A stretch of 64,000 nt of DNA. It comes from a virus. Below the pieces are notes generated by a model. That model did no database searches, was not told the DNA's origin, and was given only the letters and a program-made list of their open reading frames with translations. Shown here piece after piece: positions 4,798 to 63,691 of this stretch. The stretch spans positions 2,675 through 66,674 of IMG/VR virus record IMGVR_UViG_3300023184_005208; one strand, given 5' to 3'. Position numbers and translations under genes: made by a program. Each line of letters opens with the position of its first letter. The first letter of the stretch is position 1.

Positions 4798-4810
4798 TAA
4801 AAAATACAAT

Positions 4811-4981
4811 ATGGGAAAGTATTACGAAAATCTTGATGACCTAATTCAGTTAATCAAAAAAGTAGAAAAGAAACATCTTTTAGCTGAGTTTCTTTTAGAA
4901 TGTGTATTAACTGCCAAAATAACTCCCACAAAACCAACTCACGAAATTATTAAAGAAGCTAAGAAAAAATGGTTTAAATAA
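4811..4981 (+). CDS. small hypothetical protein
   Basis: ATG at 4811; stop overlaps the ATG at 4981. Confidence 0.55.
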   Translation: MGKYYENLDDLIQLIKKVEKKHLLAEFLLECVLTAKITPTKPTHEIIKEAKKKWFK

Positions 4982-6609
4982 TGATAACAGTAGGATATTC
5001 AACAAGAACCCCAAACCCTGAATTCACAGAATACTTAAAGAAAAGTTCAGGATTTAAAAAAATTAATGTAATAGAAAAAGTTAATAACGGAGAAAAATCT
5101 TTATCTCAAGTTTATAACGAAATTCTATCCGAGTCAGAAACTGACATAGTTGTATTTTGTCATGACGACATTTACTTTGATACGACAGGTTGGTACCACA
5201 AACTGATGAAACACTTTGATAAAAGTGATTTTGGTATTATCGGTATGGCGGGCACAACCAACATGCCTGCTAGCGGTCAATGGTGGGAAGATAGAAGAAA
5301 GATGGTTGGTATTGTGAACCACGAACACGAAGGTAAAAAATGGGTTTCAAAATATGCCGATGACTTAAATAACAATATTAAGGAAACTATAATGGTTGAT
5401 GGATTATTCTTTGCAGTTAGTAAAGAAAGATTAAAGTCAAACTTTGTCGAAGAGTTCCAAGGGTTCCATTTTTATGATGTTGCATTTTGTTTTGAGAACT
5501 TTCTTAAGGGTACTAAGGTCGGTGTAATAACTAACATTAGAATTACTCACAAATCTATTGGTCAAACTAACCAACAGTGGGAAGATAACAAACAATTATT
5601 TGCCAACAAATATTCTGAGTTTTTGCCAGCAAAAGTCGCTTTCGATAAGAACAGGAAGTTAAAGGTTTTAATCTCCTGTATGTTCTTCAAAACTTTAACA
5701 GGTTCAGAATTATATGTTTATGAACTTGCCAAAGGATTAAAAGCACTTGGCCATAGCGTTACAGTACTTTCTCAAATTGGAGGTCCTTTAACCGATATGG
5801 CAAAAAAATTAGGAATCAAATGTGTTTCATTTGAAGAAGCACCAGGATTTAAACTTGGAGATGGTAAGTGGGGATTCAATTCACCAGAAGGGTTTAAACC
5901 ATCAACTGAGAATGTTTTATACAGAGTATCAGAAGTTGATTTTGATATCATCCATATGCAACATAAACCTGTTGCAGAAAGAATGATTCAATTTTATCCT
6001 GAAATAGATAAGGTATATTCTATACACTCTGAGGTTATTGAATTAGAAGACCCAATCAAACACGAATCAATTAAAAAATACATAGCAATTAGGCCTGAGA
6101 TTAAGGATTATATTGTAAGAAATTTTGAAATACCTGAAGAAGAGATTGAGATAATTTATAATCCTGTGGATAATGAAAAATTTAAACCAGTTAAATCCGA
6201 GGTTAAAGATGCTGTTTTATTTGTTGGTACAATAGATTATCTAAGAAGAGAAGCTATAATGGATTTAATCGACTATACAAAAGATAACAATAAAGAATTG
6301 TGGTTAATGGGAGAAGATAAACAAAATTATTTATCAACCGTTTTAACACAACCCCATGTTAAATATTTTGAATCTGGTTGGAATGTTGAAAAATTAATTA
6401 ACCAATGCACAGAAACTGCAGGAATTCAATTAGGAAGAACCACAATTGAAAGTTGGTTATGTGGAAAACCAAGTTGGATTTATAGAGTTAACTCTTTAGG
6501 TAGTGTTGAATCCAAAGAAAAAACCGAAGTCCCGTCAGATTTAGAAAAATATTATACAACAAATGTTGTAAATCAAATAAAAGAAGAATACAATAAAGTC
6601 CTCTCGTGA
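4981..6609 (+). CDS. two-domain glycosyltransferase (GT-A/GT2-like + GT-B/GT4-like)
   Basis: N-terminal VFCHDDI...VDGLF...FHFYD; C-terminal TGSELYVYELAKGL..GHSV, YNPVD, LFVG. Confidence 0.85.
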   Translation: MITVGYSTRTPNPEFTEYLKKSSGFKKINVIEKVNNGEKSLSQVYNEILSESETDIVVFCHDDIYFDTTGWYHKLMKHFDKSDFGIIGMAGTTNMPASGQWWEDRRKMVGIVNHEHEGKKWVSKYADDLNNNIKETIMVDGLFFAVSKERLKSNFVEEFQGFHFYDVAFCFENFLKGTKVGVITNIRITHKSIGQTNQQWEDNKQLFANKYSEFLPAKVAFDKNRKLKVLISCMFFKTLTGSELYVYELAKGLKALGHSVTVLSQIGGPLTDMAKKLGIKCVSFEEAPGFKLGDGKWGFNSPEGFKPSTENVLYRVSEVDFDIIHMQHKPVAERMIQFYPEIDKVYSIHSEVIELEDPIKHESIKKYIAIRPEIKDYIVRNFEIPEEEIEIIYNPVDNEKFKPVKSEVKDAVLFVGTIDYLRREAIMDLIDYTKDNNKELWLMGEDKQNYLSTVLTQPHVKYFESGWNVEKLINQCTETAGIQLGRTTIESWLCGKPSWIYRVNSLGSVESKEKTEVPSDLEKYYTTNVVNQIKEEYNKVLS

Positions 6610-7316
6610 TAATATTAACAACAACATATAACTGTGCTCCTTATGTGGAAAGGTCTTTGTTAAGTATAATGTCACAAAGATTTAAAGACTTTACGTGTTA
6701 TATTACTGATGACTTATCTACGGATAATACAAGAGAAGTTATTAAAAAAACTATAGAAGGTGACTCAAGATTCATCTTAATAGAAAATCACATCAAATTA
6801 TATCAACCAGGAAATTACGACCAAATTATTAATTGGAGAGCAATACCTGGTGAAGAAATTTGCGTTGAGGTGGATGGTGACGACTGGTTACCTGACCCAA
6901 ATGTTTTTACAAGAATTAATGAAGTTTATCAAGATTCAAATGTTTGGATGACAAGTGGTTCATTCAAATACCACGATGGTAGACCCGGATTTGCAAAAGC
7001 ACCAACACAATTTACCAATATTAGAAAACAAACATTTACCTTATCTCATCTTAGAACTTGGAAGTCTTGGTTATGGAAAAAGATTAAAGAGGAAGATTTA
7101 AAAGATGAGAATGGTAATTATTGGAATGTTGCTGGAGATTTATCATTTATGTTCCCAATGTTTGAAATGTCTGGAGAGGAACATTATAGATTTCTACCTG
7201 AGATAAATTACATTTATAATGAGTCTAACCCCATCAATGACCATAAAGTTAATATGGGAAATGTGGTTAGTACTGTAAACAAAATAAGAAATAAAACCGA
7301 ATACGAAAAATTATGA
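6606..7316 (+). CDS. glycosyltransferase family 2
   Basis: TTYNC..YVERSLLSI.SQ, DDLSTDNT, VDGDDW. Confidence 0.9.
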   Translation: MIILTTTYNCAPYVERSLLSIMSQRFKDFTCYITDDLSTDNTREVIKKTIEGDSRFILIENHIKLYQPGNYDQIINWRAIPGEEICVEVDGDDWLPDPNVFTRINEVYQDSNVWMTSGSFKYHDGRPGFAKAPTQFTNIRKQTFTLSHLRTWKSWLWKKIKEEDLKDENGNYWNVAGDLSFMFPMFEMSGEEHYRFLPEINYIYNESNPINDHKVNMGNVVSTVNKIRNKTEYEKL

Positions 7317-7930
7317 CGCCAAACGAAAAATGGAACGCAGCTAGGGGCGATGACACTTTAATCATTGACTACCCTTTAGATGAAAATTCACAAGTTATTG
7401 AACTAGGTGGATATCATGGATTATGGACAAAAAGAATGTCACAAAAATTTAATTGTAATATTCTAACAATTGAGCCAATTCCAGAATTTTATAACAAGAT
7501 GATAAACGAATTTGATTACTATTTGAAAAATAATAGAGAAAAGATTAAAACGGAAAATTTTGGAATATCCACAGAAGAAAAAGAACTTACGTTCTCTGTT
7601 GATGGTGATGCAACATCTGCACACTTATCATCTTCAAACCAAATTACTATCACTTGTCACACTTTAGAACATTACCTACAAAAACATAACATTGAGAAGG
7701 TTGACCTTTTACAAGTTAATATTGAAGGAGAAGAATATCCTTTATTGGAAGAATGGACTAAGTCAGGAATTATTAATAAGGTAAAATATCTTCAGGTTCA
7801 GTACCACAGATATGGTGAAAACTATGAATCAAGACATAACAACATACAAGAAAGTTTAAAAAACTTAGGATTCAAATTAAGATATGAATTTGATTTTGTA
7901 TGGGAAGCATGGGAAAACACCAACATATAA
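7313..7930 (+). CDS. FkbM-family methyltransferase
   Basis: VIELGGYHG, IEPIP, VDLLQVNIEGEEY. Confidence 0.85.
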   Translation: MTPNEKWNAARGDDTLIIDYPLDENSQVIELGGYHGLWTKRMSQKFNCNILTIEPIPEFYNKMINEFDYYLKNNREKIKTENFGISTEEKELTFSVDGDATSAHLSSSNQITITCHTLEHYLQKHNIEKVDLLQVNIEGEEYPLLEEWTKSGIINKVKYLQVQYHRYGENYESRHNNIQESLKNLGFKLRYEFDFVWEAWENTNI

Positions 7931-7933
7931 TTT

Positions 7934-8752
7934 ATGAGTAACTTAATATCATGCAATTTAATGGGTGGTTTAGGTAATCAAATGTTTCAAGCGGGACACG
8001 CGTTAGCTCAAGGGTGGAAACATAACAGAGAAACTGTTTTCATTCCGAGGTCTTGGACTCCAATGCAAGGTAGAGAGACTTTTCATTACAAAGAAAATAT
8101 TTTTAGGAATTTAAAATTTGTTGACAATATTGACGGATTTACCAAAGTTCATGAAGGACCTTGGGAATTCTCAGAAATAAATCCTGTTGAAGATAATACC
8201 GTGTTTGAAGGTTATTTCCAAAGCGGCAAAAACTTATTAGGATTCAACGATAAGATTAGAGAAACTTTTGGACCGACAGAGCAATTCATATCTGAAATTA
8301 CTCATAAATATCCACAACTTAATCAAGATAATACAGCTTCGATTCATATTAGATTTGGAGATTACAAACAAAATCCGCACATACATCCGAGTGTTTCAAA
8401 AGAATACTTAGACAAAGCATTAGAAATGATTGGTTCATACAGTCATTTATTTTTGTTTGGTGACGATAAAGAATGGTTATCAAACAATTTTACCGGTGAC
8501 AATACCACTCTGGTAAATGAAGATGATTATGTGGATATGTGGATGATGTCTCTTTGTAAAAATAATATAATTCCGAACTCCACATTTTCTTGGTGGAGCG
8601 CATTCCTTAATAAAAACATAAATAAAAAAGTAATAGCACCGTCAATTTGGTTTGGTCCAAGTGGTCCTCAAAAATACTACGATATGTATGAACCTGATTG
8701 GACTAAAATGGACGTAATCTATTCTGACGGTGAATTAAAACCAACGAATTAA
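7934..8752 (+). CDS. alpha-1,2-fucosyltransferase-like (GT11)
   Basis: GGLGNQMFQ, GYFQS, HIRFGDY, NSTFSWW. Confidence 0.92.
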   Translation: MSNLISCNLMGGLGNQMFQAGHALAQGWKHNRETVFIPRSWTPMQGRETFHYKENIFRNLKFVDNIDGFTKVHEGPWEFSEINPVEDNTVFEGYFQSGKNLLGFNDKIRETFGPTEQFISEITHKYPQLNQDNTASIHIRFGDYKQNPHIHPSVSKEYLDKALEMIGSYSHLFLFGDDKEWLSNNFTGDNTTLVNEDDYVDMWMMSLCKNNIIPNSTFSWWSAFLNKNINKKVIAPSIWFGPSGPQKYYDMYEPDWTKMDVIYSDGELKPTN

Positions 8753-8753
8753 T

Positions 8754-9584
8754 ATGAGCGAAAAAATTAAAATTAGAAAAGTTTCCGATTATTGGGGAGA
8801 ACACGATTGTTCTTCTGCAAGAAACTTACCAAAGACATTACAGTGGTTAACAAAAGAAACAAACGAACCTTATGATACAAGTGTTTATGTTGATAACTAC
8901 ATCAGAGATTGGGGATTAAAAGACCCGTCAATGGAAAAGATTGGATGGTTGTTAGAATCTCCACAAATGAATGAAGGAACCATCAAATATATCAAGGAAA
9001 ACTTGGATATGATTAGAGAACATTATAAAATGATTTTTACTTGTATGGATAGTCTTTTAGAACTTGGAGAACCATTTAAATACACAATATCAAATGCGGT
9101 ACCTTGGATATGGCAAGAAAATAGAATGATTCACCCAAAAACTAAATTAGTTAGTATGATTGCATCAAATAAAGGATGGTTACGTGGTCATCAAAACAGA
9201 TTGAATTGGGTTGAAAAATTAAAAGATAAAGTTGATTTATTTGGTTCAGGTAGACCGAATCAATTAAAAGATAAGGAAGATGGATTGAGAGATTATATGT
9301 TTTCAGTTTCAATTGAAAACGACAACTCTCCAGGGTATTTTACAGAAAAATTAACAGACAATTTTGTCATGGGAACTGTACCTGTATATTGGGGTTCAAA
9401 AGAAATTGTTCACAAACATTTTGACCCAACAGGAGTAATCTTCTTAGAAGATGACCCAACATTGTCAACGTTATCTGTTGAAAAATATCAATCGATGATT
9501 CCTGCAATTGAAAGAAATTTCAAATTAGCTCAGGAACTTCCAATTGCGGAAGATTACTTTTTTGAAAAATATTTAAAAAAATGA
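8754..9584 (+). CDS. GT10-like (alpha-1,3/4-fucosyltransferase) protein
   Basis: YMFSVSIEN...YFTEKL.D.F..GTVPVYWG. Confidence 0.85.
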   Translation: MSEKIKIRKVSDYWGEHDCSSARNLPKTLQWLTKETNEPYDTSVYVDNYIRDWGLKDPSMEKIGWLLESPQMNEGTIKYIKENLDMIREHYKMIFTCMDSLLELGEPFKYTISNAVPWIWQENRMIHPKTKLVSMIASNKGWLRGHQNRLNWVEKLKDKVDLFGSGRPNQLKDKEDGLRDYMFSVSIENDNSPGYFTEKLTDNFVMGTVPVYWGSKEIVHKHFDPTGVIFLEDDPTLSTLSVEKYQSMIPAIERNFKLAQELPIAEDYFFEKYLKK

Positions 9585-10408
9585 AGTATCTAATTTTAGG
9601 TTCAGCAGGACAAATTGGCGCAGAACTTTGTGAATTCTTAAAAAAAGGAGGTCACGAAGTTTTAACCTTTGATGTCGAAGATGACCAAATACAAGATTTG
9701 AGAATTAAAGGAATGGTTGACTCTCGTGTAAGTGAGTCAGACTTTGTAATGTTTTTGGCATTTGATGTAGGTGGTTCAAGATACTTAAAAAAGTATCAGC
9801 ACACTTATGATTTTATTGATAACAATGCAAGACTTATGGTACACACATTTCAGGCATTAAAGTCATATAGGAAACCATTTATATTTGCATCATCTCAAAT
9901 GTCTAATATGTCTTATTCTCCTTATGGAGTTGCTAAGGCATTAGGAGAATCGTATACAAGAGCTTTAGGTGGTATCATAGTTAAGTTTTGGAACGTTTAT
10001 GGACCTGAACATAATTTAGAAAAATCTCACGTAATTACTGACTTTATCATTAAAGCTAAAGATTATGGTCATATCACAATGATGACCGATGGAACAGAAG
10101 AAAGACAATTCCTTCATGCTGAAGATTGTTCAAATGCGTTGATGATTTTATCTCAAAAGTATAATGAGATAGACAGAGATAAGGAATTACACATTACAAA
10201 CTTTGAGTGGAATACCATTTTAGATGTCGCAAACATTATAAATGAGGATATTCCTTGTAAAATAACCCCATCAAAAGAAACAGATACAGTTCAATTAAAT
10301 AAAAGAAATGAACCAGACCCATACATTTTAAATTATTGGAAACCGACTATTTCATTAAAAGAGGGAATTAAAAAAATTATAACTCAAATACAAAATGGAA
10401 CTATCTGA
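9581..10408 (+). CDS. NAD-dependent epimerase/dehydratase
   Basis: GSAGQIG, ASS, YGVAK, NVYGP. Confidence 0.9.
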   Translation: MKYLILGSAGQIGAELCEFLKKGGHEVLTFDVEDDQIQDLRIKGMVDSRVSESDFVMFLAFDVGGSRYLKKYQHTYDFIDNNARLMVHTFQALKSYRKPFIFASSQMSNMSYSPYGVAKALGESYTRALGGIIVKFWNVYGPEHNLEKSHVITDFIIKAKDYGHITMMTDGTEERQFLHAEDCSNALMILSQKYNEIDRDKELHITNFEWNTILDVANIINEDIPCKITPSKETDTVQLNKRNEPDPYILNYWKPTISLKEGIKKIITQIQNGTI

Positions 10409-11252
10409 TATATTATCTAACCATTATTACGAACTATATTCCCAAGAAACCAAAACCTACACTTCCAAAAAACATTCGGGACTATATTCAATTTTTAATT
10501 GGATTGTACGCAAAATTGTAATTTTAGAATTGAATGGGTTTCCAGTTGAGCATTTGGAAATAGATTATTATAACCAACAAATTTATGATTTGTTTTTTGA
10601 AAAAAAAGAAGGTAAGCTAGATTTTTCAGATATATCAGATGAAGAGAAAATTTTTTTTATAGAGAAATCAGATACCACAGGTTGGGGATTAGGTGATGAT
10701 GTAAAGTTGTTGAACTTTAAAATAACAAATAAAATTGTAAATAAATTTTTTAACCCCAGTAAGTTAGTATTGGATTGTTACAATAATCTTTTAAAGTCAA
10801 ACAATATTGATTTGAATAACACAATATTTGTTTGGGCTAGAAGTACCGATAAAGGAGGTGAAACAAAATTACCAAGTCTTGAAGCTTATTTAAAGATTAT
10901 TAATTCAATCAATTTATCAGATAAAGAAATATTATTACAGACTGATGATTATAGAGTTTTAAATAGTTTTAAAGGATGTGGTCTCAATCTCAAGACAATT
11001 AAAGAGATTCCAACCTCAGAAACATTAAGAGGATTTCACATGGAAATGTGTGAAATTAGTAACGACACTTTCAAATCAAAATACAAAATAAGCAAAGATG
11101 AATATCTATTACAGATGTATTGTTTATCTTTAATTGCAAAAAATTCATACAAATCAATCCTATATCCAGGAAATCCAACAACATACGTACCGATGATAAA
11201 GGGCTCTTTTGACGATTGTTATTTATTTAAGGACGATAATCAACTATTTTAA
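10395..11252 (+). CDS. hypothetical protein, possible GT-B (NodZ/O-fucosyltransferase-like)
   Basis: VWARSTDK and LLQTDD resemble the HxRxTD / xATD motifs of GT23-like enzymes; cluster context. Confidence 0.5.
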   Translation: MELSDILSNHYYELYSQETKTYTSKKHSGLYSIFNWIVRKIVILELNGFPVEHLEIDYYNQQIYDLFFEKKEGKLDFSDISDEEKIFFIEKSDTTGWGLGDDVKLLNFKITNKIVNKFFNPSKLVLDCYNNLLKSNNIDLNNTIFVWARSTDKGGETKLPSLEAYLKIINSINLSDKEILLQTDDYRVLNSFKGCGLNLKTIKEIPTSETLRGFHMEMCEISNDTFKSKYKISKDEYLLQMYCLSLIAKNSYKSILYPGNPTTYVPMIKGSFDDCYLFKDDNQLF

Positions 11253-11265
11253 TAAAAAAAAAACT

Positions 11266-11901
11266 ATGAAATCATACTCACAGTGCGGACAAGACTTATT
11301 TGTCTATTATCTGAACGAAGGAAAATCAGGTAAATTTTTAGACCTTGGTTGTTCTTTACCAATGAAAATTAACAACACATATCTTTTAGAACTTAATGGA
11401 TGGGATGGAATCTCATTAGACATCCAAGACTTTAATACACAATGGGAACAAAGAAAATGCAAATTTATTCAAGCCGATTGTCTTAATCAAAACTACAACG
11501 AATTACTTAAAGATTATTACGATGACAAAGTAATTGATTATCTAACATTAGATATGGAAGGATGTGGTGACAGATATAAATTACTACAAAAAATTATTGA
11601 GAGTGATTACACATTCAAAATAATCACAATAGAACACGACGCATACCTTGGAGATGAGTTTGTTAATAAAGAACAAATACCACAACGTGAATTGTTAAAA
11701 TCAAAAGGATATCAATTAATTTGTTCTGACGTATCTCACGCAAAGAATCCTGAATTATTCTTTGAAGATTGGTGGGTTAATCCTCAATATTTTGAAGAGT
11801 CTGACCTTGTGTCATGGACCAGCGATAAAACCAGCTGTGATAAAATTTTTGAAAAATTAAATATTGAATATGAAATTGCAAACGAATCAATCGACAGGTA
11901 A
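11266..11901 (+). CDS. FkbM-like methyltransferase
   Basis: SYSQCGQD, FLDLG, NNTYLLE..GWDG, IDYLTLDME, ITIEH, EDWWV. Confidence 0.8.
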   Translation: MKSYSQCGQDLFVYYLNEGKSGKFLDLGCSLPMKINNTYLLELNGWDGISLDIQDFNTQWEQRKCKFIQADCLNQNYNELLKDYYDDKVIDYLTLDMEGCGDRYKLLQKIIESDYTFKIITIEHDAYLGDEFVNKEQIPQRELLKSKGYQLICSDVSHAKNPELFFEDWWVNPQYFEESDLVSWTSDKTSCDKIFEKLNIEYEIANESIDR

Positions 11902-12991
11902 GAAAATAGTTGTGTTAGGGGGAGGTGGATTCATCGGAGGTCACCTCGCAAAAAGATTAAAAGAAGAGGGTAACCACGTTAGAATTTGTGATATTAAAAG
12001 ACATGAACACTTCTATGAAGATGAGATATGTCATGAATTTATTTTAGGGGATTTAACAGACCCTAAGGTCGTAGATTTGGTTATTGAGGAAGGGGTGGAT
12101 GAAGTGTATCAATTAGCTGCTGACATGGGTGGTGCTCTTTATATCTTCACTGGTGAGAACGATGCAAATCTTATGCACAACTCAGCAACTATTAATTTAA
12201 ACGTATCAAGAGAATGTGTTAAGAAAAAAGTTAAGAAAGTATTCTACTCTTCTTCAGCTTGTATGTATCCTGAACACAATCAACTTGACCCATTAAATCC
12301 AAACTGTGAAGAAAGTTCTGCATACCCTGCAAACCCTGATTCAGAATACGGATGGGAAAAGTTATTCTCTGAAAGAGTATTTTTGGCATACCATAGAAAC
12401 TATAAGTTAAATGTAAGAATTGCAAGATTTCATAACATCTTTGGTCCACAAGGTACTTGGAAAGGTGGTAGAGAGAAATCACCAGCAGCAATGTGTAGAA
12501 AGGTTGTTGAAGCCAAAGACGGAGATATCATCGAAGTATGGGGTAATGGTGAACAAACTCGTTCATTCCTTTATGTTGAAGAATGCGTTGAAGCGGTTCT
12601 TAGATTAATGGAATCAGATTTTACCGGACCTGTTAACATTGGAAGTGAAGAAATGGTTACAATTAATCAACTTGCCGAAATGGCAATTAGTATATCAGGA
12701 AAAAACCTATCAATCGAAAATATTGATGGTGAAGAGTTCGTAGAAAAATATGGATTTAAATGTCCTCTTGGTGTTAAAGGAAGAAATTCTGACAATAAAC
12801 TTTATCGTGAAAAAGTTGGGTGGGAGGTTAGTCAACCTCTTTTAACAGGACTTACAAAAACTTTTTTATGGATAAAATCTCAAGTAGATACTTTAGAATT
12901 AGAAACTCCTTGGATTTACGAAAGTCCTGATGGTGGTAAAACAGTGTTTAAGAGAGAGCCTATGTCCACAAAAAGGATAAAAATTAAATAA
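11870..12991 (+). CDS. GDP-mannose 3,5-epimerase-like extended SDR
   Basis: GGGGFIG, LAADMGG, SSACMYPE, YGWEK, RFHNIFGP.GTWKGGREK.PAA.CRK, GRNSDN closely follow plant/bacterial GME. Confidence 0.88.
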   Translation: MKLQTNQSTGKKIVVLGGGGFIGGHLAKRLKEEGNHVRICDIKRHEHFYEDEICHEFILGDLTDPKVVDLVIEEGVDEVYQLAADMGGALYIFTGENDANLMHNSATINLNVSRECVKKKVKKVFYSSSACMYPEHNQLDPLNPNCEESSAYPANPDSEYGWEKLFSERVFLAYHRNYKLNVRIARFHNIFGPQGTWKGGREKSPAAMCRKVVEAKDGDIIEVWGNGEQTRSFLYVEECVEAVLRLMESDFTGPVNIGSEEMVTINQLAEMAISISGKNLSIENIDGEEFVEKYGFKCPLGVKGRNSDNKLYREKVGWEVSQPLLTGLTKTFLWIKSQVDTLELETPWIYESPDGGKTVFKREPMSTKRIKIK

Positions 12992-12997
12992 AAAACC

Positions 12998-13378
12998 ATG
13001 GTATCAGTTCCAGTTAGTATTGGAGAAATGATTGATAAACTATCAATTCTTCAAGTAAAAAAAACTAAAATTTCCGATGAAACAAAATTAGATTTTGTAA
13101 ATAAAGAATTTGAAATTTTATACAATTTATCGTCAGTTTACTTAGACAACGTTGAAATCGAATCACTTTATCATCGATTAGTTGAAATCAATTCATCTCT
13201 TTGGGATGTTGAGGACAAATTAAGAATTATAGAAAAAGAAAAAAGATTTGAAGGTGAGTTTATATCTTTGGCGAGAAAAGTATATTTTACTAATGATGAA
13301 AGATTTAGTTTAAAAAATGAAATCAATTTGCTCACACTCTCAGAAATTAGAGAAGTTAAAGATTACGTAAAATATTAA
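12998..13378 (+). CDS. DUF6165-like protein
   Basis: VPVSIGEMIDKLSIL...LWDVED..R...LARKVYFTNDER...EVK.Y. Confidence 0.7.
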   Translation: MVSVPVSIGEMIDKLSILQVKKTKISDETKLDFVNKEFEILYNLSSVYLDNVEIESLYHRLVEINSSLWDVEDKLRIIEKEKRFEGEFISLARKVYFTNDERFSLKNEINLLTLSEIREVKDYVKY

Positions 13379-13395
13379 CAATTAAAAACAAACGG

Positions 13396-14136
13396 ATGGG
13401 AAAAACAACAAGGAGAGTATCTTCTACTCAACTTTCAAATTTAAACGAAGAAAAAATCGTTAAATCAAAAAAAGAACAAATTTGTTCAATCATAAAAAGA
13501 AAAACAAAACAAAAATTTTTATCGGAAAGTCAAAAAGAATATTATGAAAAATTAGAATCAAATCAAATTACGATTTGTTCGGGACCGGCCGGTGTTGGTA
13601 AAAGTTACATAGCAATGAAAGGAGCGGTTGATTTATTAAGTGACCCAAATACTCCTTATGAAAAAATTATTATTGTACGACCAGCGGTTGAGGCTGAAGA
13701 AAAACTTGGCTCACTTCCCGGTAACGTAGAAGAAAAATTAGACCCATATATTTTTCCATCGTATTATCTATTAAATAAAATTATTGGTAAAGAGACTAGA
13801 GAAAAATTAAAAGATATTGAAGCTATTGAAGTTTTTGCATTAGCATATATGAGAGGTATGAATATTGATAATTCAATTCTTATATTTGAAGAGGCTCAAA
13901 ATTCAACTCCAAGTCAAATGAAGTTGTTATTAACAAGAATTGGATTTAACTCCAAATTTTTTATTTCAGGTGACTTAGAACAATTTGATAGACATAAAGA
14001 TAAAACACAAACAGGACTTTGGGATGCCATGAAAAAATTCAGAGATTTACCAAGTGTTGGTGTACACGAATTTGGTGACGGTGATGTTGTTAGAAACCCA
14101 CTTATTACACAAATTTTAAAAAGATACGAAGAATGA
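13396..14136 (+). CDS. phoH: PhoH-family ATPase
   Basis: GPAGVGKS, RPAVEA.EKLGSLPG, LAYMRG, EEAQN, GD..Q.D, VVRNPL. Confidence 0.93.
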   Translation: MGKTTRRVSSTQLSNLNEEKIVKSKKEQICSIIKRKTKQKFLSESQKEYYEKLESNQITICSGPAGVGKSYIAMKGAVDLLSDPNTPYEKIIIVRPAVEAEEKLGSLPGNVEEKLDPYIFPSYYLLNKIIGKETREKLKDIEAIEVFALAYMRGMNIDNSILIFEEAQNSTPSQMKLLLTRIGFNSKFFISGDLEQFDRHKDKTQTGLWDAMKKFRDLPSVGVHEFGDGDVVRNPLITQILKRYEE

Positions 14137-14744
14137 AAATAGGAATAGAAATTAATGGGATATTAAGGGATACTTTAAAAAAAATCCAACAAGAATATGA
14201 AAAATGGTATCTTAACGAAAATTGGAAAGAAATGAAATTTGTTGAAGATGAAAAGGATATTGAAAGAAAAGTTATTTCTGAAGTAAGTTCTTTAAATCTA
14301 AATAATCATTTAGTTTTTAAAAATGAAGATGAGGTATACGATTTTCTCTACAAAGAACACACAATGGAAATTTTTGGTCATGCTAGCTCTGTAGAATATA
14401 GCGGAATGAATGATTTAAATGATTTTTACACTGAGATGAGGGACAATCACGATATTATTATTGTTTCTGATGAAATTGGAAAATCAAAACCTGCTTCATT
14501 GTTTTTCTTGGCAAAATTTGGTTGCTTAGTTGAACAGGTTAAATTTTATAGCGAAAGTACAATTAATTCACTTTGGGACTCCGTAGACATTTTACTTACC
14601 GCTAATCCTAATCTATTATTAAATCATCCTAAAAATAAAAAGTTAATCAAATACGAAACATTTTATAACAAGGACATAAAAAATGAGTATTCAATTTCAA
14701 CACTGAAAGAACTCAAAACTAAAATTGAAGAATTAAATGATTAA
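14133..14744 (+). CDS. HAD-fold 5'-nucleotidase-like protein with degenerate motif I
   Basis: MKIGIEINGILRD resembles IGIDIDGVLRD but lacks the catalytic Asp residues. Confidence 0.55.
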   Translation: MKIGIEINGILRDTLKKIQQEYEKWYLNENWKEMKFVEDEKDIERKVISEVSSLNLNNHLVFKNEDEVYDFLYKEHTMEIFGHASSVEYSGMNDLNDFYTEMRDNHDIIIVSDEIGKSKPASLFFLAKFGCLVEQVKFYSESTINSLWDSVDILLTANPNLLLNHPKNKKLIKYETFYNKDIKNEYSISTLKELKTKIEELND

Positions 14745-15018
14745 AGTACTTGGAGAAAATTACTACGTTGATTTGGATGAAATTGAAAATTACTTAGACA
14801 TGACAGATGACTCACCAACTGAAACAATCACTGGTGGTACTGAGACAAAAATTAACATTATCAAATTTGAAATGGTTAAGATGATGTTAGATACTGTTCT
14901 AACAGAACAGGAGGATTTGGATGACAAATTAGGTATGAAAGGGGCAGCCAACACAAGTATTCCGTTCAGAATTGCATTCAACAGTTTATTAAATAAAAAA
15001 CTTATCAATCATTATTAA
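14737..15018 (+). CDS. hypothetical phage protein
   Basis: 93-aa ORF overlapping its neighbours. Confidence 0.65.
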   Translation: MIKVLGENYYVDLDEIENYLDMTDDSPTETITGGTETKINIIKFEMVKMMLDTVLTEQEDLDDKLGMKGAANTSIPFRIAFNSLLNKKLINHY

Positions 15019-15019
15019 T

Positions 15020-16075
15020 ATGGGAAATTTAGCACAAGAAAAAGTTTTAGAGTCAATAAAAACTTTAAGAGAAAAAAAAGCGAGAATTTATTTATTCGCA
15101 CAAGACACTAAAGGAAATGCAAAAGCATCTGTAAAATACATTTATGATGTTGCATTAACTTTAAAAAGAGGTGGATTCAATCCAATAATTTTACACGAAA
15201 AAAATGACTATGCCGGTGTAGAATCTTGGTTAGGAAATGAATACATGAGTGAAATACCTCACCAATCAATCGAAGGACAAAATTTAGAAATAAGTCCTGA
15301 AGATTTTTTAATCCTACCTGAAATTTTTGGGTACGTTATGGACCAAGTAAAAACATTACCATGTGCCAAAATTGTTTTAACACAATCATACGCATACTTG
15401 TTAGAAACTTTACAACCAGGACAAACATGGGCACAATTTGGATTTTACAAGTGTATCACAACTAACAACAAACAAAAAGAATACATTGAAAGAGTAATGA
15501 GACAATCATCTTTTGATATATTAACACCTTACATATCAGAAAATTTCACCCCAAGAAAATTACCTGCAATGCCAATTGTTGCTGTTCACACAAGAGAACA
15601 AAGCGATGCGATTAATTTAATTAAAACGTTTTATTTAAAATTCCCTCAATACAGATGGTTTACATTTAGAGATATGAGAGGATTATCTGAAAAAGAATTT
15701 TCTAAAGCATTAAAAGAATGTTTTATGAGCGTTTGGATTGACGATAAATGTGGGCATGGTACATTCCCATTAGAATCTATGGCATGTAACGTACCTTGTT
15801 TAGGTAAAATTCCTGACTTATCTCCTGAGTGGATGAATGAAGATAATGGAGTTTGGGTTACAGATTTAACTATGATGGCTGACTATATTGCAGATTTTAT
15901 TCAAAATTGGTTAGAAGATAATATTAAACCTGATTTATACGAAAACATGCAAAAAACAGCTAAAGATTTTATGAATAAACAAGAATTTGATTCTAAAGTA
16001 ATCTCATTATTCGAAGGTTATTTAAATACAAGAGCAGATTCATTTGAACAACAAATATCAAAAACAGAAGAATAA
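15020..16075 (+). CDS. GT-B glycosyltransferase-like protein
   Basis: LILPE, GHGTFPLESMACNVP donor-binding motif. Confidence 0.75.
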   Translation: MGNLAQEKVLESIKTLREKKARIYLFAQDTKGNAKASVKYIYDVALTLKRGGFNPIILHEKNDYAGVESWLGNEYMSEIPHQSIEGQNLEISPEDFLILPEIFGYVMDQVKTLPCAKIVLTQSYAYLLETLQPGQTWAQFGFYKCITTNNKQKEYIERVMRQSSFDILTPYISENFTPRKLPAMPIVAVHTREQSDAINLIKTFYLKFPQYRWFTFRDMRGLSEKEFSKALKECFMSVWIDDKCGHGTFPLESMACNVPCLGKIPDLSPEWMNEDNGVWVTDLTMMADYIADFIQNWLEDNIKPDLYENMQKTAKDFMNKQEFDSKVISLFEGYLNTRADSFEQQISKTEE

Positions 16076-16076
16076 T

Positions 16077-16883
16077 ATGAGTAATAAATTATCAGTATCC
16101 GTTATACTACCGTTAAAATCATCTAAAGCAAAAAACTTTGATGAGTATTTTGAAAAGGCAATCACGTCATTAAAATCCCAACAAACTCAAATTGAGGAAC
16201 TTGTTATTGTACACACTCAAGAAGAAAGTTTAGTTACATTACTAAACTCTTACGACTTTGGTGATTTAAATGTTGTCAAATTAGTTTGGGATAAAGAACC
16301 TAACTACTCATCTCAAGTTAACTATGGTGTTGAGAAAGCTAAAGGAACATGGGTTTCATTTTTTGAATTTGATGATGAATACGCATCAATTTGGTTTAAA
16401 AATGTTGCAATGTACATTGAGTCATACCCTGAAGTACAAGTATTTTTACCTGTTGTGGTTGACACAGATGAAAAAACAACTTTTGTTGGTTTTACAAATG
16501 AAGCCACTTTCGCAGCAAACTTTACCCAAGAAATGGGAGTGTTAACTAACGAAACATTACATGACTATCAAAATTTCCAAACAGCTGGTTCGGTAATTAA
16601 AAAATCAGTAATTGAAGATTTTGGAGGATTTAAAAGTTCAATAAAATTAACATTTGTTTATGAATTTTTACTAAGGTTAACATACAATTCAGTATCAGTA
16701 ATGACAATTCCAAGATTGGCATACAAACACACTAATTTAAGAGAAGGTTCAATATTTTGGAATTATAAAAACAGTGAGCCTAAAATGTTAGAAGACGAGG
16801 TTAAGTTTTGGGTGGCGACTGCAAAAAAAGAATATTTTTTCACTGACGACAGAGTCATAAAATATCAATCAGAAAATGCATAA
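16077..16883 (+). CDS. glycosyltransferase family 2-like
   Basis: VSVILP, KAITSL..Q, VNYGVEKAKG.WVSFFEFDD. Confidence 0.8.
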   Translation: MSNKLSVSVILPLKSSKAKNFDEYFEKAITSLKSQQTQIEELVIVHTQEESLVTLLNSYDFGDLNVVKLVWDKEPNYSSQVNYGVEKAKGTWVSFFEFDDEYASIWFKNVAMYIESYPEVQVFLPVVVDTDEKTTFVGFTNEATFAANFTQEMGVLTNETLHDYQNFQTAGSVIKKSVIEDFGGFKSSIKLTFVYEFLLRLTYNSVSVMTIPRLAYKHTNLREGSIFWNYKNSEPKMLEDEVKFWVATAKKEYFFTDDRVIKYQSENA

Positions 16884-17629
16884 TGTCAGAAACAATCTCT
16901 GCAACTACAGAAGATGTTTCGTCAAAAAAAAGAGGAAGGAAAGCGGTTAATTTAAATTATTTTGATGTCAGAGAAGAAACAGCGGTAAGAAACTTTTTAA
17001 TTGCTGAATCTTCGCACGAAAAAAATAAAATTTATAATGAATTTCTAAGAGCACCTCTAGATAAGATGATTTCATCTATCATTAGACGTTACAAACTATA
17101 TCGTAAAGATATGGACTTCAATGAAATTCATTGTGATACTCATTCGTTCTTAATGACCAAGGTCGATAAGTTCAAACCAGATAAAAATAAAAAAGCATAT
17201 TCCTATTTTGGTACAATATGTAAAAATTATCTGATGGGTCAAATTATTAAAGACCAAAAAGAAACTAACAGAAAAATATCCTACGAAGACATTTCTTCAA
17301 GTTTAGAAGAAAGACCTGACATGAGTTATAGAATTGATGAGGATATTGTTGAAAGTGATGTTATAATAAACAAATATTTACAAGAACTTAAAGAATTCAT
17401 TGAAAATGAAAATTTAAATGATAACGAAAGAAAATTAGGATATGCGTTAATTGATTTATTCGATAACTACCAAACAATATTTTCAGGTGCTGATAATAAC
17501 AAATTTAATAAAAATGTTATTTTATTATCACTAAGAGAAATGACTAATTTGAGTACTAAAGAAATTAGAAGTTCTATTAAAAGATTTAAAAAATTATACA
17601 TCGTAATTCAAACTAGGATGAAAAATTAA
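16883..17629 (+). CDS. late-transcription sigma factor (T4 gp55-like)
   Basis: KFKPDK.KKAYSYFGTICKNYL resembles the gp55 region-2 motif (AFAYFTQIC.NAF). Confidence 0.7.
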   Translation: MSETISATTEDVSSKKRGRKAVNLNYFDVREETAVRNFLIAESSHEKNKIYNEFLRAPLDKMISSIIRRYKLYRKDMDFNEIHCDTHSFLMTKVDKFKPDKNKKAYSYFGTICKNYLMGQIIKDQKETNRKISYEDISSSLEERPDMSYRIDEDIVESDVIINKYLQELKEFIENENLNDNERKLGYALIDLFDNYQTIFSGADNNKFNKNVILLSLREMTNLSTKEIRSSIKRFKKLYIVIQTRMKN

Positions 17630-20129: not shown

Positions 20130-20333
20130 ATGACTCAAGAACAACTAATTAAAATAATTGAAGAACAAAAAGATTTAAAAAATTTACCTAATAGTAATTT
20201 AGTTCAAATGATGGATTTATTATCATTAGAGTTTGAGGACGTTAAGAAAAATTTAATATCAATGACTTTTCATTTAGATAAAGTTGAGGAGTTGTATAAT
20301 AATTCATTAAAAGAATTTCAAAATAGAGCATAA
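20130..20333 (+). CDS. small hypothetical protein
   Basis: ATG 1 nt after the upstream stop; TAATG coupling to the next gene. Confidence 0.65.
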   Translation: MTQEQLIKIIEEQKDLKNLPNSNLVQMMDLLSLEFEDVKKNLISMTFHLDKVEELYNNSLKEFQNRA

Positions 20334-21862
20334 TGGGTAATAATTTATTTTATCAATGTTTAGTATTAGACACCAATGACCCTTTAATGTTGGGTAGAAT
20401 TAGAGGTACTCTAATAACAGACAACTATGCAGATATTATCAGAAGCTTTGACGACCCACCATGGGATGAAGTAAAAGATGCGTGGACTGAAAGAGACCCT
20501 TTTATCTTCAATCCTTTATTGCCATATTTTATTTACCAAGTACCAAAAGTAAAAGAATTAGTACAGATTATGTATTTGAATAATGATTTCAAATATCAGA
20601 ACCAATACTATGTTCAAAATACTTTCTATTCACCAACTTCATCGTTCTTTCAATTTAATGAGGGTGGTAATAAGTTTACGGGTACGGGTATGCAAATAAA
20701 AAGCCCAAAACCTCTTAAAGAAAAAACAAGTGGTATATTAACTGAAAAGGGTGTTCATAAAGGTGTATTCCCTGAACCAGGTGATAATGCCATTTTAGGT
20801 AGAGGTAGTGCCGATTTAATTGTTAAAGAAAATGAAGTCTTATTAAGAGCCGGTAAATTCCAAGGAGAATCTCTTCAGCCAAATATAGTTCCTGTTGCAA
20901 ACCAGCAAAGAGGATATCTTCAACTTACAAGATTCCCAAGTGTTAAAATTCCATTGGAACCTAAGAAGTATATTGAGATTGAAGAAAAAGTTTTATTGGT
21001 GAAATACCTAATGGAATGGACAATTATCAATCCTGAAAACGCTGAAGACAAATTTGCCGGCACAGTTTATCTATATCAACTTAAACCTGACATTTCGATA
21101 AACACACAAAATTTAACATTAGGTGCGCCTATTAATGAAAATTTAAAAGTATTGGTGGCAACTGAAGAATTTTTTGGGTTAAGCACTGTTGAAACAGTTA
21201 ATTTTATTAATCTGTTTATACAAGCATGTAATAGTAAATTTATTACCAAATCAGGGACTCAATTATTCTCATCTCAAACAACGGATAGATTTCCAATTTT
21301 TTACAGACCAAATAATTTAACATATTCTTACATCAACCCTTCATCAAATAGAAATACTAAAAGCCAAGAATTTACCAATATTTCAAATATCTTTTCAAAG
21401 ATAAAATTGAATCCGCCACTTAAACAAGCTGGTTACGGATTGATTTATAAATTAGATACTGTTGGTACCCCAATGGATACAAAGACAGTTATAGTTCCCC
21501 AATCAAAATATTTCCCCAACCCACAAACATTTGGTGCACTTGGTGCGGATAAGGTATTCTTATTGTCCAATCAAACGGCAATACCGGGAAAGAGAAAGAT
21601 TAATTTTGACGATACGTTATATGGTATTTCAAACGATAAGTTCTCTGACGATATTATTCCAAACACATCGAGCATGGTTAGAGGTGAGGAGTTATTAGAA
21701 TTGATTAATTTGATTACAAGATTCTTATTAACACACACTCACGCATATCCTGGATTACCTCCAGTTCCCGTTACACAAGACGGAACATCATCCACAGATA
21801 TACTCACAGAACTACAAAATGCGGTGACAAAAGTTTTAAATGAGAATATCCGTCTTAATTGA
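20333..21862 (+). CDS. baseplate hub/central spike (gp5/VgrG-like)
   Basis: N-terminal DTNDPLMLGRIR OB-fold motif; C-terminal THTHAYPG (HxH apex motif). Confidence 0.7.
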   Translation: MGNNLFYQCLVLDTNDPLMLGRIRGTLITDNYADIIRSFDDPPWDEVKDAWTERDPFIFNPLLPYFIYQVPKVKELVQIMYLNNDFKYQNQYYVQNTFYSPTSSFFQFNEGGNKFTGTGMQIKSPKPLKEKTSGILTEKGVHKGVFPEPGDNAILGRGSADLIVKENEVLLRAGKFQGESLQPNIVPVANQQRGYLQLTRFPSVKIPLEPKKYIEIEEKVLLVKYLMEWTIINPENAEDKFAGTVYLYQLKPDISINTQNLTLGAPINENLKVLVATEEFFGLSTVETVNFINLFIQACNSKFITKSGTQLFSSQTTDRFPIFYRPNNLTYSYINPSSNRNTKSQEFTNISNIFSKIKLNPPLKQAGYGLIYKLDTVGTPMDTKTVIVPQSKYFPNPQTFGALGADKVFLLSNQTAIPGKRKINFDDTLYGISNDKFSDDIIPNTSSMVRGEELLELINLITRFLLTHTHAYPGLPPVPVTQDGTSSTDILTELQNAVTKVLNENIRLN

Positions 21863-21882
21863 TATTTATTGAAAAAGATTAA

Positions 21883-24213
21883 ATGTCAATTTTAAGGTCA
21901 TACATAGATAAGAATAATACCATTACATCAAACTCATATGTAAACACAGCGAGAAATCCAGTTGTGGAACTGAATTTTGGTGCATCGGATTATGTAATTC
22001 CGAACTACGGATACACAAGATACATCTTCGATTTAGACTTGGTTCAACTGAGACAAGACATTGCATCAGGAGTTATATCAACAGGATGTACTTCAGCAAT
22101 GACCCATACTCTTCAAATGACCAACACGTCTTCATTTGATAATGAATTACTTAATACTTTTATGTCCAATGAAAGAAGAAGAGCAACTTCATTCGACTTA
22201 ATTTTATTCAGAATACCTGAAAGTTGTAATCCAGTTCCCGCACAATCATCATATACTCAAACAGTAAAATATACTTATCCAAATGCAGTATTTGCCGAAA
22301 CATGGGGAACATACACAACAGGATTTATTGCATCTCAAGGATATAGTTCAGATAATATAATATATGCAGAAGGAATTTGTTCTGATGATGTTGACGGACC
22401 AACATTTACAGGTGTAAATAATATTGGTGAATTTCCTGAATCAATGAATACATTTCTTGGGCCATTTATGTCTGGAGGATTAGCGGGTTATCCGTTTGTT
22501 GGAAGTGTTGGTTTAGGAGCATGGGCAAGCCATGTTACAAATACAGGAACATTGTTTATTTCAAGTATGCCACACATAGGAATTACCGAAGATGGAGATG
22601 TTGGTTACATGTATCGTAGAGGTCAAGGAAATTATCTTTCAAATACTTGTGGAGCCGTTGCTGGAGCTGTTAATTGGGTTACAGGTTCAACTCAAGCTCC
22701 AGAATATACTGGTTTTACTGAAGGAGGGAATTACGAATTTTATACACTTACAAATATATTATGGGAATATAAATCTACTTTAACAGGTATGACTTATGGT
22801 CAACAAATGAAATTTGCAACAGATACTATTAGAGATGCTGCAGAACAATTTATTATTGAAAACTTACCGTCTTCAGTTACCGCACAAACATCTAATAATG
22901 TTTATTTTTGTAATGGTATTTTTATTAATACCGATGATGGTAGCGAAGCTTATGTCGATATTAATAGATTTAAAAGATATAATACAAGCGCAAATACATG
23001 GACAGATTTAACTTCAATATATTTAAGTGGATTAACCGCAGCAACTCCAGTACAAACATGTATCTCAAATCCACAATTTTGGGATGAGGGTGTAGGTTAT
23101 GATTATAATGATTTTAACATTGCCAAGAATAGTGCCATAGGTGGTTCAGTACCACTTACTTATGTGGATAGCAGAGCCTTCTCAACAAGACCTTCAAACT
23201 GGTATCAAACAACAACAATAGATGAATGGTCACAACCAGGAATCTACAACAACAAAAATGAAGGGTTGGTTAACTTTTCAGGTTTAACTATTGTTGCAAG
23301 ACAACACTTTGATTTAGGAAACGAAGACCTTGATATGGATATGACTGATGAGATTAATGGTATCCTTGACGGTTCTATCACTGGCGTTACAGGGTGGGGT
23401 TTGGCTTACTTACCTCAGATTGAAAACATAACAGGTTTAACTGACAGTTATAGTGTAGCATTTTTCTCAAAATACACACAAACATTCTATCAACCATACC
23501 TATTAACAAACTATGATGACTTAATTAAAGATGATAGAAATCAATTTTTAAAAAACCAAGTTAATAAATTATACCTTTATGTTTATCAAAATGGTGATTT
23601 GGTTAATTTAGACATGGACCCTTATGTTAGAATCGAAGATGCTAATGGTTTGGCATTATCAGGAATGAGTTCATTATCAACTTGTTTAAGAACTAAAGGT
23701 GTTTATGAAGTTGTCGTACCTAATGGATTTTCAGGGTATCCAACCCCTTGTATGTTCTATGATGTTTGGTCAGGATTGACTATCAATGGAGAATGTATTC
23801 CAAACATACAAAATCAATTCATATTACAACCATATAAAGCAGGTATTCAAATTGGAACTGTGTCTCAAGAACCTGAAATATTTGGATTTAATTTCTATGG
23901 TATACAGCAGAACGAACAAATTTTAAATAGTGATATTAGAAAAGTTGGTGTTACGATTAAACAAGCTTATACAGGTCAACAAGTTCTTTTAAACGTTTCA
24001 TCTTTTTATAGGGTATATGTTAAAGAAGGAACTACCGAAGTTCAAGTTCAAGATTGGACTCCATTAAACAGAACACCAAATCAATATTATTTTATATTTG
24101 ACATGAGAGATAAGATTCCAAACCAATATTATGTTGATATTCAAGTGAATAGTAGCGGTACTAAAGATACTTATAAACAACAATTAACATTTAACATCGT
24201 AAATAAAAAATGA
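21883..24213 (+). CDS. probable virion structural protein with an inserted LCIB/theta-carbonic-anhydrase-like domain
   Basis: Flanks look like phage structural protein (WDEGVGYDY, T/S-G rich); residues ~125-370 contain ICSDD, GGLAGYPFVG..G..A.ASH, PHIGI..G..G...RRGQ, TCGA. Confidence 0.75.
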   Translation: MSILRSYIDKNNTITSNSYVNTARNPVVELNFGASDYVIPNYGYTRYIFDLDLVQLRQDIASGVISTGCTSAMTHTLQMTNTSSFDNELLNTFMSNERRRATSFDLILFRIPESCNPVPAQSSYTQTVKYTYPNAVFAETWGTYTTGFIASQGYSSDNIIYAEGICSDDVDGPTFTGVNNIGEFPESMNTFLGPFMSGGLAGYPFVGSVGLGAWASHVTNTGTLFISSMPHIGITEDGDVGYMYRRGQGNYLSNTCGAVAGAVNWVTGSTQAPEYTGFTEGGNYEFYTLTNILWEYKSTLTGMTYGQQMKFATDTIRDAAEQFIIENLPSSVTAQTSNNVYFCNGIFINTDDGSEAYVDINRFKRYNTSANTWTDLTSIYLSGLTAATPVQTCISNPQFWDEGVGYDYNDFNIAKNSAIGGSVPLTYVDSRAFSTRPSNWYQTTTIDEWSQPGIYNNKNEGLVNFSGLTIVARQHFDLGNEDLDMDMTDEINGILDGSITGVTGWGLAYLPQIENITGLTDSYSVAFFSKYTQTFYQPYLLTNYDDLIKDDRNQFLKNQVNKLYLYVYQNGDLVNLDMDPYVRIEDANGLALSGMSSLSTCLRTKGVYEVVVPNGFSGYPTPCMFYDVWSGLTINGECIPNIQNQFILQPYKAGIQIGTVSQEPEIFGFNFYGIQQNEQILNSDIRKVGVTIKQAYTGQQVLLNVSSFYRVYVKEGTTEVQVQDWTPLNRTPNQYYFIFDMRDKIPNQYYVDIQVNSSGTKDTYKQQLTFNIVNKK

Positions 24214-63689: not shown

Positions 63690-63691
63690 TG

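Follow-up and report, generated by a model that had tools for sequence, protein, structure and literature searches.

We report a viral gene in which a carbonic anhydrase-type domain has been built into a loop of a conserved phage protein. The gene is an open reading frame (ORF) of 776 codons in a window of 64,000 nucleotides, positions 2,675 to 66,674 of IMG/VR record IMGVR_UViG_3300023184_005208, which is 66,674 bp long and has a CheckV completeness of 16%. The inserted segment belongs to the LCIB/theta-type family of beta-carbonic anhydrases (CAs), and the surrounding protein, referred to here as the carrier, is otherwise found as an uninterrupted chain of about 500 aa. On balance we favor the interpretation that the gene is an allele of a conserved, all-beta late protein of T4-like freshwater phages with genomes of ~310-330 kb, in which a loop has been exchanged for an LCIB domain, and that its product is a putative virion-borne CA. 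What is new is the nesting of the domain in a conserved spike-adjacent protein, and a single origin followed by cassette-like spread, leaving three alternative architectures within one clade.

Membership in the LCIB family is established by profile, fold and metal ligands. The Pfam profile PF18599 (LCIB_C_CA) matches the 776-aa protein with an E-value of 5e-33 and 114.7 bits (cut-off 25) over profile positions 15-220 of 223, and a six-frame search of the record with the same profile gives 118.1 bits; the opposite strand has no ORF of at least 80 aa across the gene. Searching the PDB with phmmer returned eight distinct LCIB-family sequences and nothing else, the best being 6kfs (4.6e-15) and PtLCIB4 (5b5y; 6.4e-12). 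An AlphaFold2 model of the whole protein, built from a 96-row mixed alignment, has predicted local distance difference test (pLDDT) values of 88-98 over aa 121-385 and is poor elsewhere, with low values at the junction residues. By Foldseek, the modelled insert matches PtLCIB4 with an E-value of 2e-16, a template modelling (TM) score of 0.85-0.86 and a root-mean-square deviation (rmsd) of 3.5 Å, and it matches 6kfs (TM 0.85, rmsd 2.9), LCIC (TM 0.71) and LCIB (TM 0.70).

The active site is intact (Table 1). Residue numbers were carried over by aligning the protein with HMMER to PtLCIB4, both the wild type and the S47R mutant row; zinc ligands of beta-class enzymes are treated in general terms in section 4 of PMC5876011. 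Each of the three putative zinc ligands C166, H231 and C256 is kept in 67 of the 68 LCIB-bearing rows of a wide alignment, D168 and R245 are kept in all 68, and H217 is invariant in a 23-sequence alignment (A2). The window reads ICSDDV where wild-type PtLCIB4 has LCSDEV and the mutant row has LCRDEV, so that Ser, not Arg, follows the first Cys. Jin et al. 2016 reportedly described the Cys-His-Cys zinc ligands, the roles of S47 and H88, and Arg after the first Cys as the inactive state of LCIB/LCIC; these roles and the numbering were cross-checked only against PDB mutant names and rows. The LCIB-type features present are the profile, the fold, Cys-His-Cys, the Asp, Arg and second-shell His residues, and the Ser, with the homodimer present by prediction only. 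The ratio of nonsynonymous to synonymous substitution rates (dN/dS) in the insert is 0.115 between the window and locus L001, which indicates purifying selection.

Table 1. Features of the nested gene and its surroundings, in window coordinates
Feature	Position	Strand	Remark
776-aa ORF, carrier protein with nested LCIB domain	21883..24213	+	
Carrier N-terminal part, aa 1-112	21883..22218	+	up to LFRIP
Inserted segment, aa 113-396	22219..23070	+	ESCNP...QTCISN
Carrier C-terminal part, aa 397-776	23071..24213	+	all-beta with Ig/FN3-like sandwiches
Pfam PF18599 LCIB_C_CA match, aa 149-364	22327..22974	+	
Cys115	22225..22227	+	N-terminal bracket cysteine
C166-S167-D168	22378..22386	+	first zinc ligand, Ser, catalytic Asp; PtLCIB4 C46-S47-D48
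H217	22531..22533	+	PtLCIB4 H88; in predicted dimer interface
H231	22573..22575	+	second zinc ligand; PtLCIB4 H102
R244-R245	22612..22617	+	PtLCIB4 R116-R117
C256	22648..22650	+	third zinc ligand; PtLCIB4 C126
Cys393	23059..23061	+	C-terminal bracket cysteine
509-aa upstream gene, putative central-spike protein	20333..21862	+	synteny, weak Phage_base_V leads
TATTTATW start-proximal motif, TATTTATT	21863..21870	+	ends 12 nt before carrier ATG
S77 prohead protease	start 33694	minus	E 1.3e-23
T4-type portal	start 37010	minus	E 4e-76
Gp23 major capsid protein	within 28.8-38.8 kb	minus	E 5.6e-71
T4-type large terminase (TerL)	within 28.8-38.8 kb	minus	E 1.1e-13
ClpB/ClpC-like double-AAA ATPase	47316-49328		
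TonB-dependent receptor, full	54502-57051		CarboxypepD_reg N-domain
Three tRNAs (Ser, Ile, His)	63368-63966		

Comparison with orthologues shows that the domain is nested within the carrier. A search of 5.8 billion proteins gave 2298 matches among the 8000 candidates scored, and among the 120 orthologues listed, 116 are 499-512 aa long and lack PF18599, the other four (P0002-P0005) having it. At the junction, the insert-less orthologues align as LFRIP KTSGDTGN PQFWDEGVGYDY, and the window as LFRIP ESCNP...(284 aa)...VQTCISN PQFWDEG; the eight-residue loop KTSGDTGN has thus been exchanged for 284 residues, a net gain of 276 aa (776 minus 500). The insertion point falls at the end of strand 100-113 in the model of an insert-less orthologue. 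Among IMG/VR genomes 170 carrier genes were confirmed, and all 80 that were kept are insert-less; a second insert-bearing viral record, G001, has an open frame of 779 aa. The two window flanks combined are 98.6% identical to the insert-less orthologues P0006 and P0007.

Two cysteines, Cys115 and Cys393, bracket the insert in five of five full-length insert forms (P0005 is truncated at its N-terminus, and is left out of this count and of the flank tree below), and both are absent from insert-less carriers and from stand-alone LCIB proteins in the alignments. They may staple the insert at its base as a putative disulfide clasp. A sequence-only reading of this DNA had already proposed an LCIB/theta-class domain with C166, D168, H231 and C256 at its metal site, lying between two cysteines and interrupting the sequence LFRIP / QFWDEGVGYDY, and had suggested a search with the LCIB_C_CA profile and an alignment of orthologues; the profile match at aa 149-364, the LCIB-only matches in the PDB, the PtLCIB4 alignment and the relatives lacking the insert agree with it on each of these points. 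The insert that it placed at 22240-23060 (aa 120-393) is real, and its exact bounds need correction, the replaced segment being aa 113-396.

Some features of base composition accompany the junctions. The hexamer AATCCA (Asn-Pro) occurs at both, at 22228-22233 and 23068-23073, and insert-less alleles have a single AACCCA; the repeat could be microhomology used in the capture, or chance. GC content at third codon positions is 0.12 in the insert (22219-23076), and 0.30 and 0.21 in the N- and C-terminal flanks, respectively, with total GC alike across the three (0.34 for the insert, 0.34 and 0.32 for the flanks).

A fusion of this type could in principle arise from a chimeric assembly, which the sequence-only reading had named as a way in which it might fail, or from a frame artefact, and we regard the chance of this as practically negligible. 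In four runs of four studies, both junctions are spanned by Logan contigs that were assembled independently, so the fusion is not an assembly chimera. One run (X1), which may be the source run, has a contig covering 21882-23415 with 0 differences; the other three have contigs at 21600-22771 and 22774-23135 (X3), 21882-22353 and 22992-24074 (X4), and 22108-22258 and 22967-23159 (X5). Moreover, the same architecture is present in the four further protein clusters P0002-P0005 and in G001, and the further insert forms differ from that of the window by 2-17%. A clean joint skipping 22219-23070 was sought in the same samples, and one weak joint only was seen (22095 to 23188, one contig, side 22, in X4), which was not used.

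The insert appears to derive from stand-alone LCIB genes of phages. A search with the insert alone found 279 proteins; all 120 listed carry PF18599, have lengths of 294-402 aa and show 49-69% identity across 92-95% of the insert. An exhaustive HMMER search of 1.84 billion representatives yielded 703 relatives at E ≤1e-3 and 26 at E ≤1e-30. In viral contigs, 87 of 119 pattern matches encode insert relatives, and in genomes of 185,579 prokaryote species, one per species, 1 of 46 does, the lone case being a 1.5-kb contig of a metagenome-assembled genome; the insert thus belongs to an LCIB branch found almost only in viral contigs. The whole protein and the insert had no tblastn match in 50,697 GenBank phage records.

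In alignments, the stand-alone LCIB proteins have an extra N-terminal 'handle' of ~65 aa, then a Pro-rich linker, and then the catalytic domain. The insert starts at the Pro-rich linker and ends at the C-terminus of the stand-alone proteins, and the handle is missing; a hidden Markov model (HMM) of the handle has no match in the window. In a 79-row tree, four insert domains form one clade (support of 99 in the Shimodaira-Hasegawa-like approximate likelihood-ratio test, SH-aLRT) nested among handle-bearing phage proteins, with P0123 as the nearest stand-alone relative at 69% identity. Because the insert clade is single and nested in this way, a single capture event with loss of the handle is indicated: the domain would have been captured once from the phages' own stand-alone handle-LCIB genes, retaining the linker. 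The catalytic domains of these stand-alone proteins (336-361 aa; P0123 and those of G005 and G036 are examples) are 50-69% identical to the insert, but they follow a handle and are encoded ~25-33 kb away from the carrier gene, whereas the window domain has no handle and is nested in the carrier. The handle HMM matches 57 ORFs in the fetched loci, 48 with an LCIB domain and 9 without. The latter, of 80-916 aa, are in L006, L007, L010, L011, L036 and L041, and some handle-bearing non-LCIB ORFs lie directly beside the LCIB gene.

Three architectures coexist in one clade. An insert-less carrier without any LCIB gene is found in two complete relatives (326 and 309 kb); in G005 and G036 the carrier is again insert-less (83-84% identity to the insert-less query orthologue, P0020) and a stand-alone handle-LCIB gene is present as well; and G000 and G001 have the nested form. 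More distant phages, with carriers 39-62% identical, also combine an insert-less carrier with a stand-alone LCIB gene, and the carrier is seen in 3 of 5 and in 8 of 26 records with stand-alone LCIB, most records being fragments.

Several comparisons show that insert and flanks have different histories. The nearest flank relative of each insert-bearing carrier is insert-less, at 98.6, 97.5, 94.5 and 87.8% identity, and P0001 and P0002 are 98.2% identical in the insert and 87.1% in the flanks. When the window is compared with L001, the insert has a synonymous divergence (dS) of 0.43 and the flanks have values of 1.77 and 1.47. A tree was built from flanks only, using 77 of 200 carrier rows (five insert-bearers, every third other row, and the nearest neighbours of the insert-bearers); on it the insert label needs at least four changes, all four forced by starred branches. 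Taken together, the insert-less neighbours, the contrasting identities, the tree changes and the low dS of the insert indicate that the cassette moved between already diverged carrier alleles by homologous recombination through the conserved flanks. It is dispensable and mobile, being present in some phages and absent from near-identical ones.

The ends of the insert-bearing records lie close to this locus. Both terminate soon after the stop codon of a homologue of a 733-aa gene, ~116 nt beyond it in G000 and ~21 nt in G001, the record ends being G000:1-120 (L177) and G001:1-60 (L176), just left of the window. In G005 the stand-alone LCIB gene starts right after the 733-aa gene, that is, at the position where G000 and G001 end. 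This could be coincidence, or the assemblies may have broken at a variable or repeated spot. The last 33 codons that can be read in G000 are unlike the start of a handle-LCIB gene, but G036 has three small ORFs in between, so that they are no proof that insert-bearing phages lack the stand-alone gene.

Beta-class CAs tend to form dimers, according to section 4 of PMC5876011, and the insert is predicted to do likewise. Two copies modelled with zinc paired with interface scores (ipSAE) of 0.92, 0.92 and 0.94 in three runs, the best control giving 0.00; at least 88% of contacts agreed between runs, and the partners had pLDDT values of at least 91. Among solved structures used for calibration, 20 of 30 homomers and 1 of 23 monomers passed the dimer mark; these counts apply only roughly to the insert, because a custom alignment and a riding ligand were used. 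The predicted interface is formed by insert residues 55-58, 104-105 and 133-137 (S167-D170, S216-H217 and R245-N249), including active-site residues. Neither insert terminus is part of it, and tethering at both ends is therefore compatible with pairing. The two active sites may become complete only once a beta-CA-type dimer has been made from the inserts of two adjacent carrier subunits. We regard the insert as a putative zinc-hydroxide CA, and judge catalysis to be slightly the better bet; the enzyme would equilibrate CO2 + H2O with HCO3- + H+ by the ordinary zinc-hydroxide mechanism.

The carrier itself is less readily placed. A model of an insert-less orthologue consists of beta structure throughout, and its Ig/FN3-like sandwiches at aa 270-370 and 400-500 are confidently predicted; the fold of the N-terminal half is barely probed, because it is poorly modelled. 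Foldseek against the PDB gave TM values of at most 0.33, and a wide VIA-align search Z values of at most 10.2, on aa 388-498 only. In BFVD the carrier matches two uncharacterised viral proteins, one labelled Myoviridae sp., with TM 0.5 and 0.4, the remaining matches being generic FN3 'virion structural' proteins at TM ≤0.2. CBM96, the nearest named ESM Atlas cluster, accounts for only 14% of members and was set aside as an identity, being a lead only.

Gene order and a shared upstream motif bear on the location of the carrier. A spike-like gene of 430-509 codons directly precedes the carrier in 11 of 11 loci (L165-L175), an order kept down to 39% carrier identity. In the window, this 509-aa protein contains the sole PF04717 (Phage_base_V) candidate of the 66.7-kb record, at aa 7-26 with E 0.0997 and 9.4 bits, below the cut-off of 23.8, and Phage_base_V is its nearest named ESM Atlas cluster (score 0.91, 176 shared features); it and a 703-aa upstream gene had no Pfam, PHROG, NCBIfam or PDB match, even with an eight-sequence profile. 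Its C-terminus contains an H-x-H motif (HTHAYPGLPP, aa 468-470) with both His residues invariant in eight homologues at 26-64% identity, a motif that we take to resemble the iron-binding tips of the P2 gpV and phi92 gp138 spikes.

The motif TATTTATW lies no more than 30 nt upstream of an ATG opening an ORF of at least 80 aa at 17 of its 23 window sites, compared with a mean of 1.85 and a maximum of 7 for random positions (1000 draws). Its raw count is not raised (23 sites, 17639-63322, versus a shuffle mean of 25.6). It is common to the portal, prohead protease, carrier and TonB-receptor genes, and is probably a promoter-like element of this phage group. The adjacent spike-like gene, the H-x-H motif upstream, the element shared with portal and protease, and the adjoining head module all speak for a particle protein, and the two added cysteines suggest an extracellular one. 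There is a reasonable case, a shade stronger than that for catalysis, that the carrier is carried on the phage particle. Being covalently built into a multi-Ig-like late protein beside a spike gene, the enzyme would most likely sit on the particle too, where it could bring CO2, bicarbonate and protons towards equilibrium at the surface or envelope of the host as the phage adsorbs or enters.

A number of observations weigh against a virion-borne CA. Sequence searches of Pfam, PHROG, NCBIfam and the PDB find no match for the carrier, its models have low confidence (mean pLDDT 61.5 for the insert-less orthologue, and 63), and fold searches return generic Ig/FN3/CBM-like sandwiches only. In the complete relative G003, the carrier (131.7 kb) is 84 kb from Baseplate_J (47.9 kb) and 54 kb from a sheath-like gene (77.2 kb), and does not cluster with recognised baseplate or tail genes. 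No GPW_gp25 match was found in the record. The sequence-only reading had called the carrier a probable virion protein of the baseplate or tail and its neighbour a 'gp5-like spike'; these searches do not establish either label, and the spike assignment of the 509-aa gene is weak. TATTTATW is not specific to virion genes, because it also precedes the TonB-receptor gene. As regards function, the Chlamydomonas proteins LCIB and LCIC have a full site and lack in-vitro activity, PtLCIB3 and PtLCIB4 being active (PMC5876011, section 16; PMC9614477, section 17), so that conservation of the site is no proof of catalysis. The dimer prediction may reflect memory of solved LCIB dimers and therefore shows conserved likeness, not proof of binding. 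Two complete relatives do without any LCIB gene, so its function is dispensable, and since a CA only speeds an equilibrium, the benefit outside the cell is not obvious.

These points leave room for other explanations. The domain might be a non-catalytic structural or binding module, a dimerising clamp between carriers or a ligand-binding knob with a structural zinc site, which we think unlikely, though worth serious attention. Chlamydomonas LCIB/LCIC provide a precedent, being inactive in vitro with the site kept and proposed to form a structural barrier (PMC5876011, section 16). The strong predicted homodimer would supply a cross-link, and the bracket cysteines and loop position suit a decorative knob. 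However, the non-ligand residues H217, R244-R245 and D168 are invariant or nearly so, as expected for catalysis and not for a clamp, and Ser167 occupies the position at which the PtLCIB4 S47R row has Arg, reportedly the state of the inactive LCIB and LCIC. It is far less probable that, instead of hydrating CO2, the domain carries out another reaction known from the beta-CA fold, for instance the hydrolysis of carbonyl sulfide (COS) or carbon disulfide (CS2); this idea draws only on the fact that some enzymes of that fold are COS or CS2 hydrolases, and the closest solved relatives are all of the LCIB family, with a site identical to that of PtLCIB4 residue for residue.

An explanation that we rate about as improbable as the structural module is that the carrier is not in the virion at all, being an intracellular or envelope-directed late protein, and that the enzyme is an auxiliary metabolic one, for example supplying bicarbonate for carboxylations and nucleotide synthesis for a ~320-kb genome. 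Further cargo of host type is encoded in the window, namely a TonB receptor, a ClpB-like ATPase and a large block of glycosyltransferases; the carrier is apart from recognised baseplate genes in G003, and alpha, beta and gamma CAs of viruses are reported as auxiliary genes in the preprint 10.64898/2026.01.21.700432. Yet it is not evident why a soluble metabolic enzyme should be nested in a multi-Ig-like protein of 500 aa or, in relatives, fused to a modular handle that nine non-LCIB ORFs of up to 916 aa share. The two extra cysteines hint at oxidising conditions outside the cell, and the gene lies between a spike-like gene and the head module. The preferred explanation of a loop-inserted, putatively virion-borne CA can be carried further: the particle may bear working CA dimers on a spike-adjacent protein that collapse local CO2/HCO3-/H+ disequilibria at the host surface or envelope, as a plug-in cassette traded among strains and alternating with a docked handle version. 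This fuller scenario is speculative, and we hold it as a possibility that is more doubtful than the core reading.

The phage is T4-like by the profile matches of its head genes, and the module of Gp23, portal, S77 protease and TerL lies 3-15 kb downstream of the carrier gene. GC content of the window is ~32%. Relatives that share these genes have records of up to 309 and 326 kb, with an estimated completeness of 100%, which makes the clade one of jumbo phages. The gene was found in metagenomic runs from lakes and fresh water (20 rows, 11 studies, with two possible sources included), and no RNA runs were seen among the listed holders. The nearest GenBank relatives of the major capsid protein, at 41-43% identity, are from an uncultured 484-kb phage, Microcystis phage Mel-JY01 and Flavobacterium phages. 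The TonB receptor with its CarboxypepD_reg domain may point to a Bacteroidota host. A run of glycosyltransferase genes (GT2, GT4 and GT10-like) with an NAD-dependent epimerase/dehydratase gene, at 2277-16883, is followed directly by a 248-aa ORF (16883-17629), then by the spike-like gene and the carrier gene; stand-alone LCIB genes of other phages likewise adjoin glycosyltransferases (L023, L041). The 248-aa ORF has a weak match to the sigma-70 family (TIGR02937, E 0.0011, below cut-off), and is a possible phage sigma factor.

To our knowledge, the virion-associated phage enzymes described so far cut polymers such as peptidoglycan, capsules and lipopolysaccharide. A CA in a late, spike-adjacent protein would mean a different chemistry at the phage-host interface; if the proposal is correct, it would be the first known case of a virion-borne enzyme whose substrate is small and inorganic and not a cell-wall polymer, and surface pH or mineral layers might be altered, or the inorganic-carbon handling of the host disturbed. 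So far, the nested form gives the strongest hint at the sequence level that the widespread, phage-only LCIB branch is physically mounted on a larger assembly and is not a free metabolic enzyme. The locus also constitutes a natural experiment, with near-identical phages with and without the cassette, and relatives with a separate handle-tagged enzyme. A compact domain of LCIB type that can evidently be tethered by both its ends is of interest for the engineering of CO2-concentrating mechanisms and for display scaffolds.

Searches of the literature on phage and viral CAs and on LCIB, with supplementary files outside their reach, found no LCIB-type CA in a phage among the papers listed, in keeping with the earlier remark that no such fusion had been described. 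An enzyme domain embedded in a structural-type protein at a spike module is also the arrangement of the T4 gp5 lysozyme domain and of tail-spike depolymerases; those enzymes cut cell-wall or capsule polymers, whereas a CA has no polymer substrate, and the carrier is a putative virion protein. Residue 47 of PtLCIB4 has its counterpart in Chlamydomonas LCIB/LCIC in what we take to be an Arg, the window having Ser. The Chlamydomonas proteins (5k5w, 5b5x) share family and fold at the TM values given above but are more distant (E 0.0014 and 0.0077), and lack in-vitro activity according to PMC5876011. Diatom and algal LCIB proteins are free enzymes of CO2-concentrating mechanisms. PtLCIB4 and PtLCIB3 of Phaeodactylum tricornutum (also termed theta-CA), 6kfs and 9vzj belong to the same Pfam family, with the same fold and aligned site residues; PtLCIB4-type proteins are free and 21-24% identical to the insert, which here is nested in the loop of a phage protein and bracketed by two cysteines. 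The alpha, beta and gamma CAs of the preprint 10.64898/2026.01.21.700432 are encoded by viruses, as is the insert, but they are free-standing, of other classes, and interpreted as metabolic cargo.

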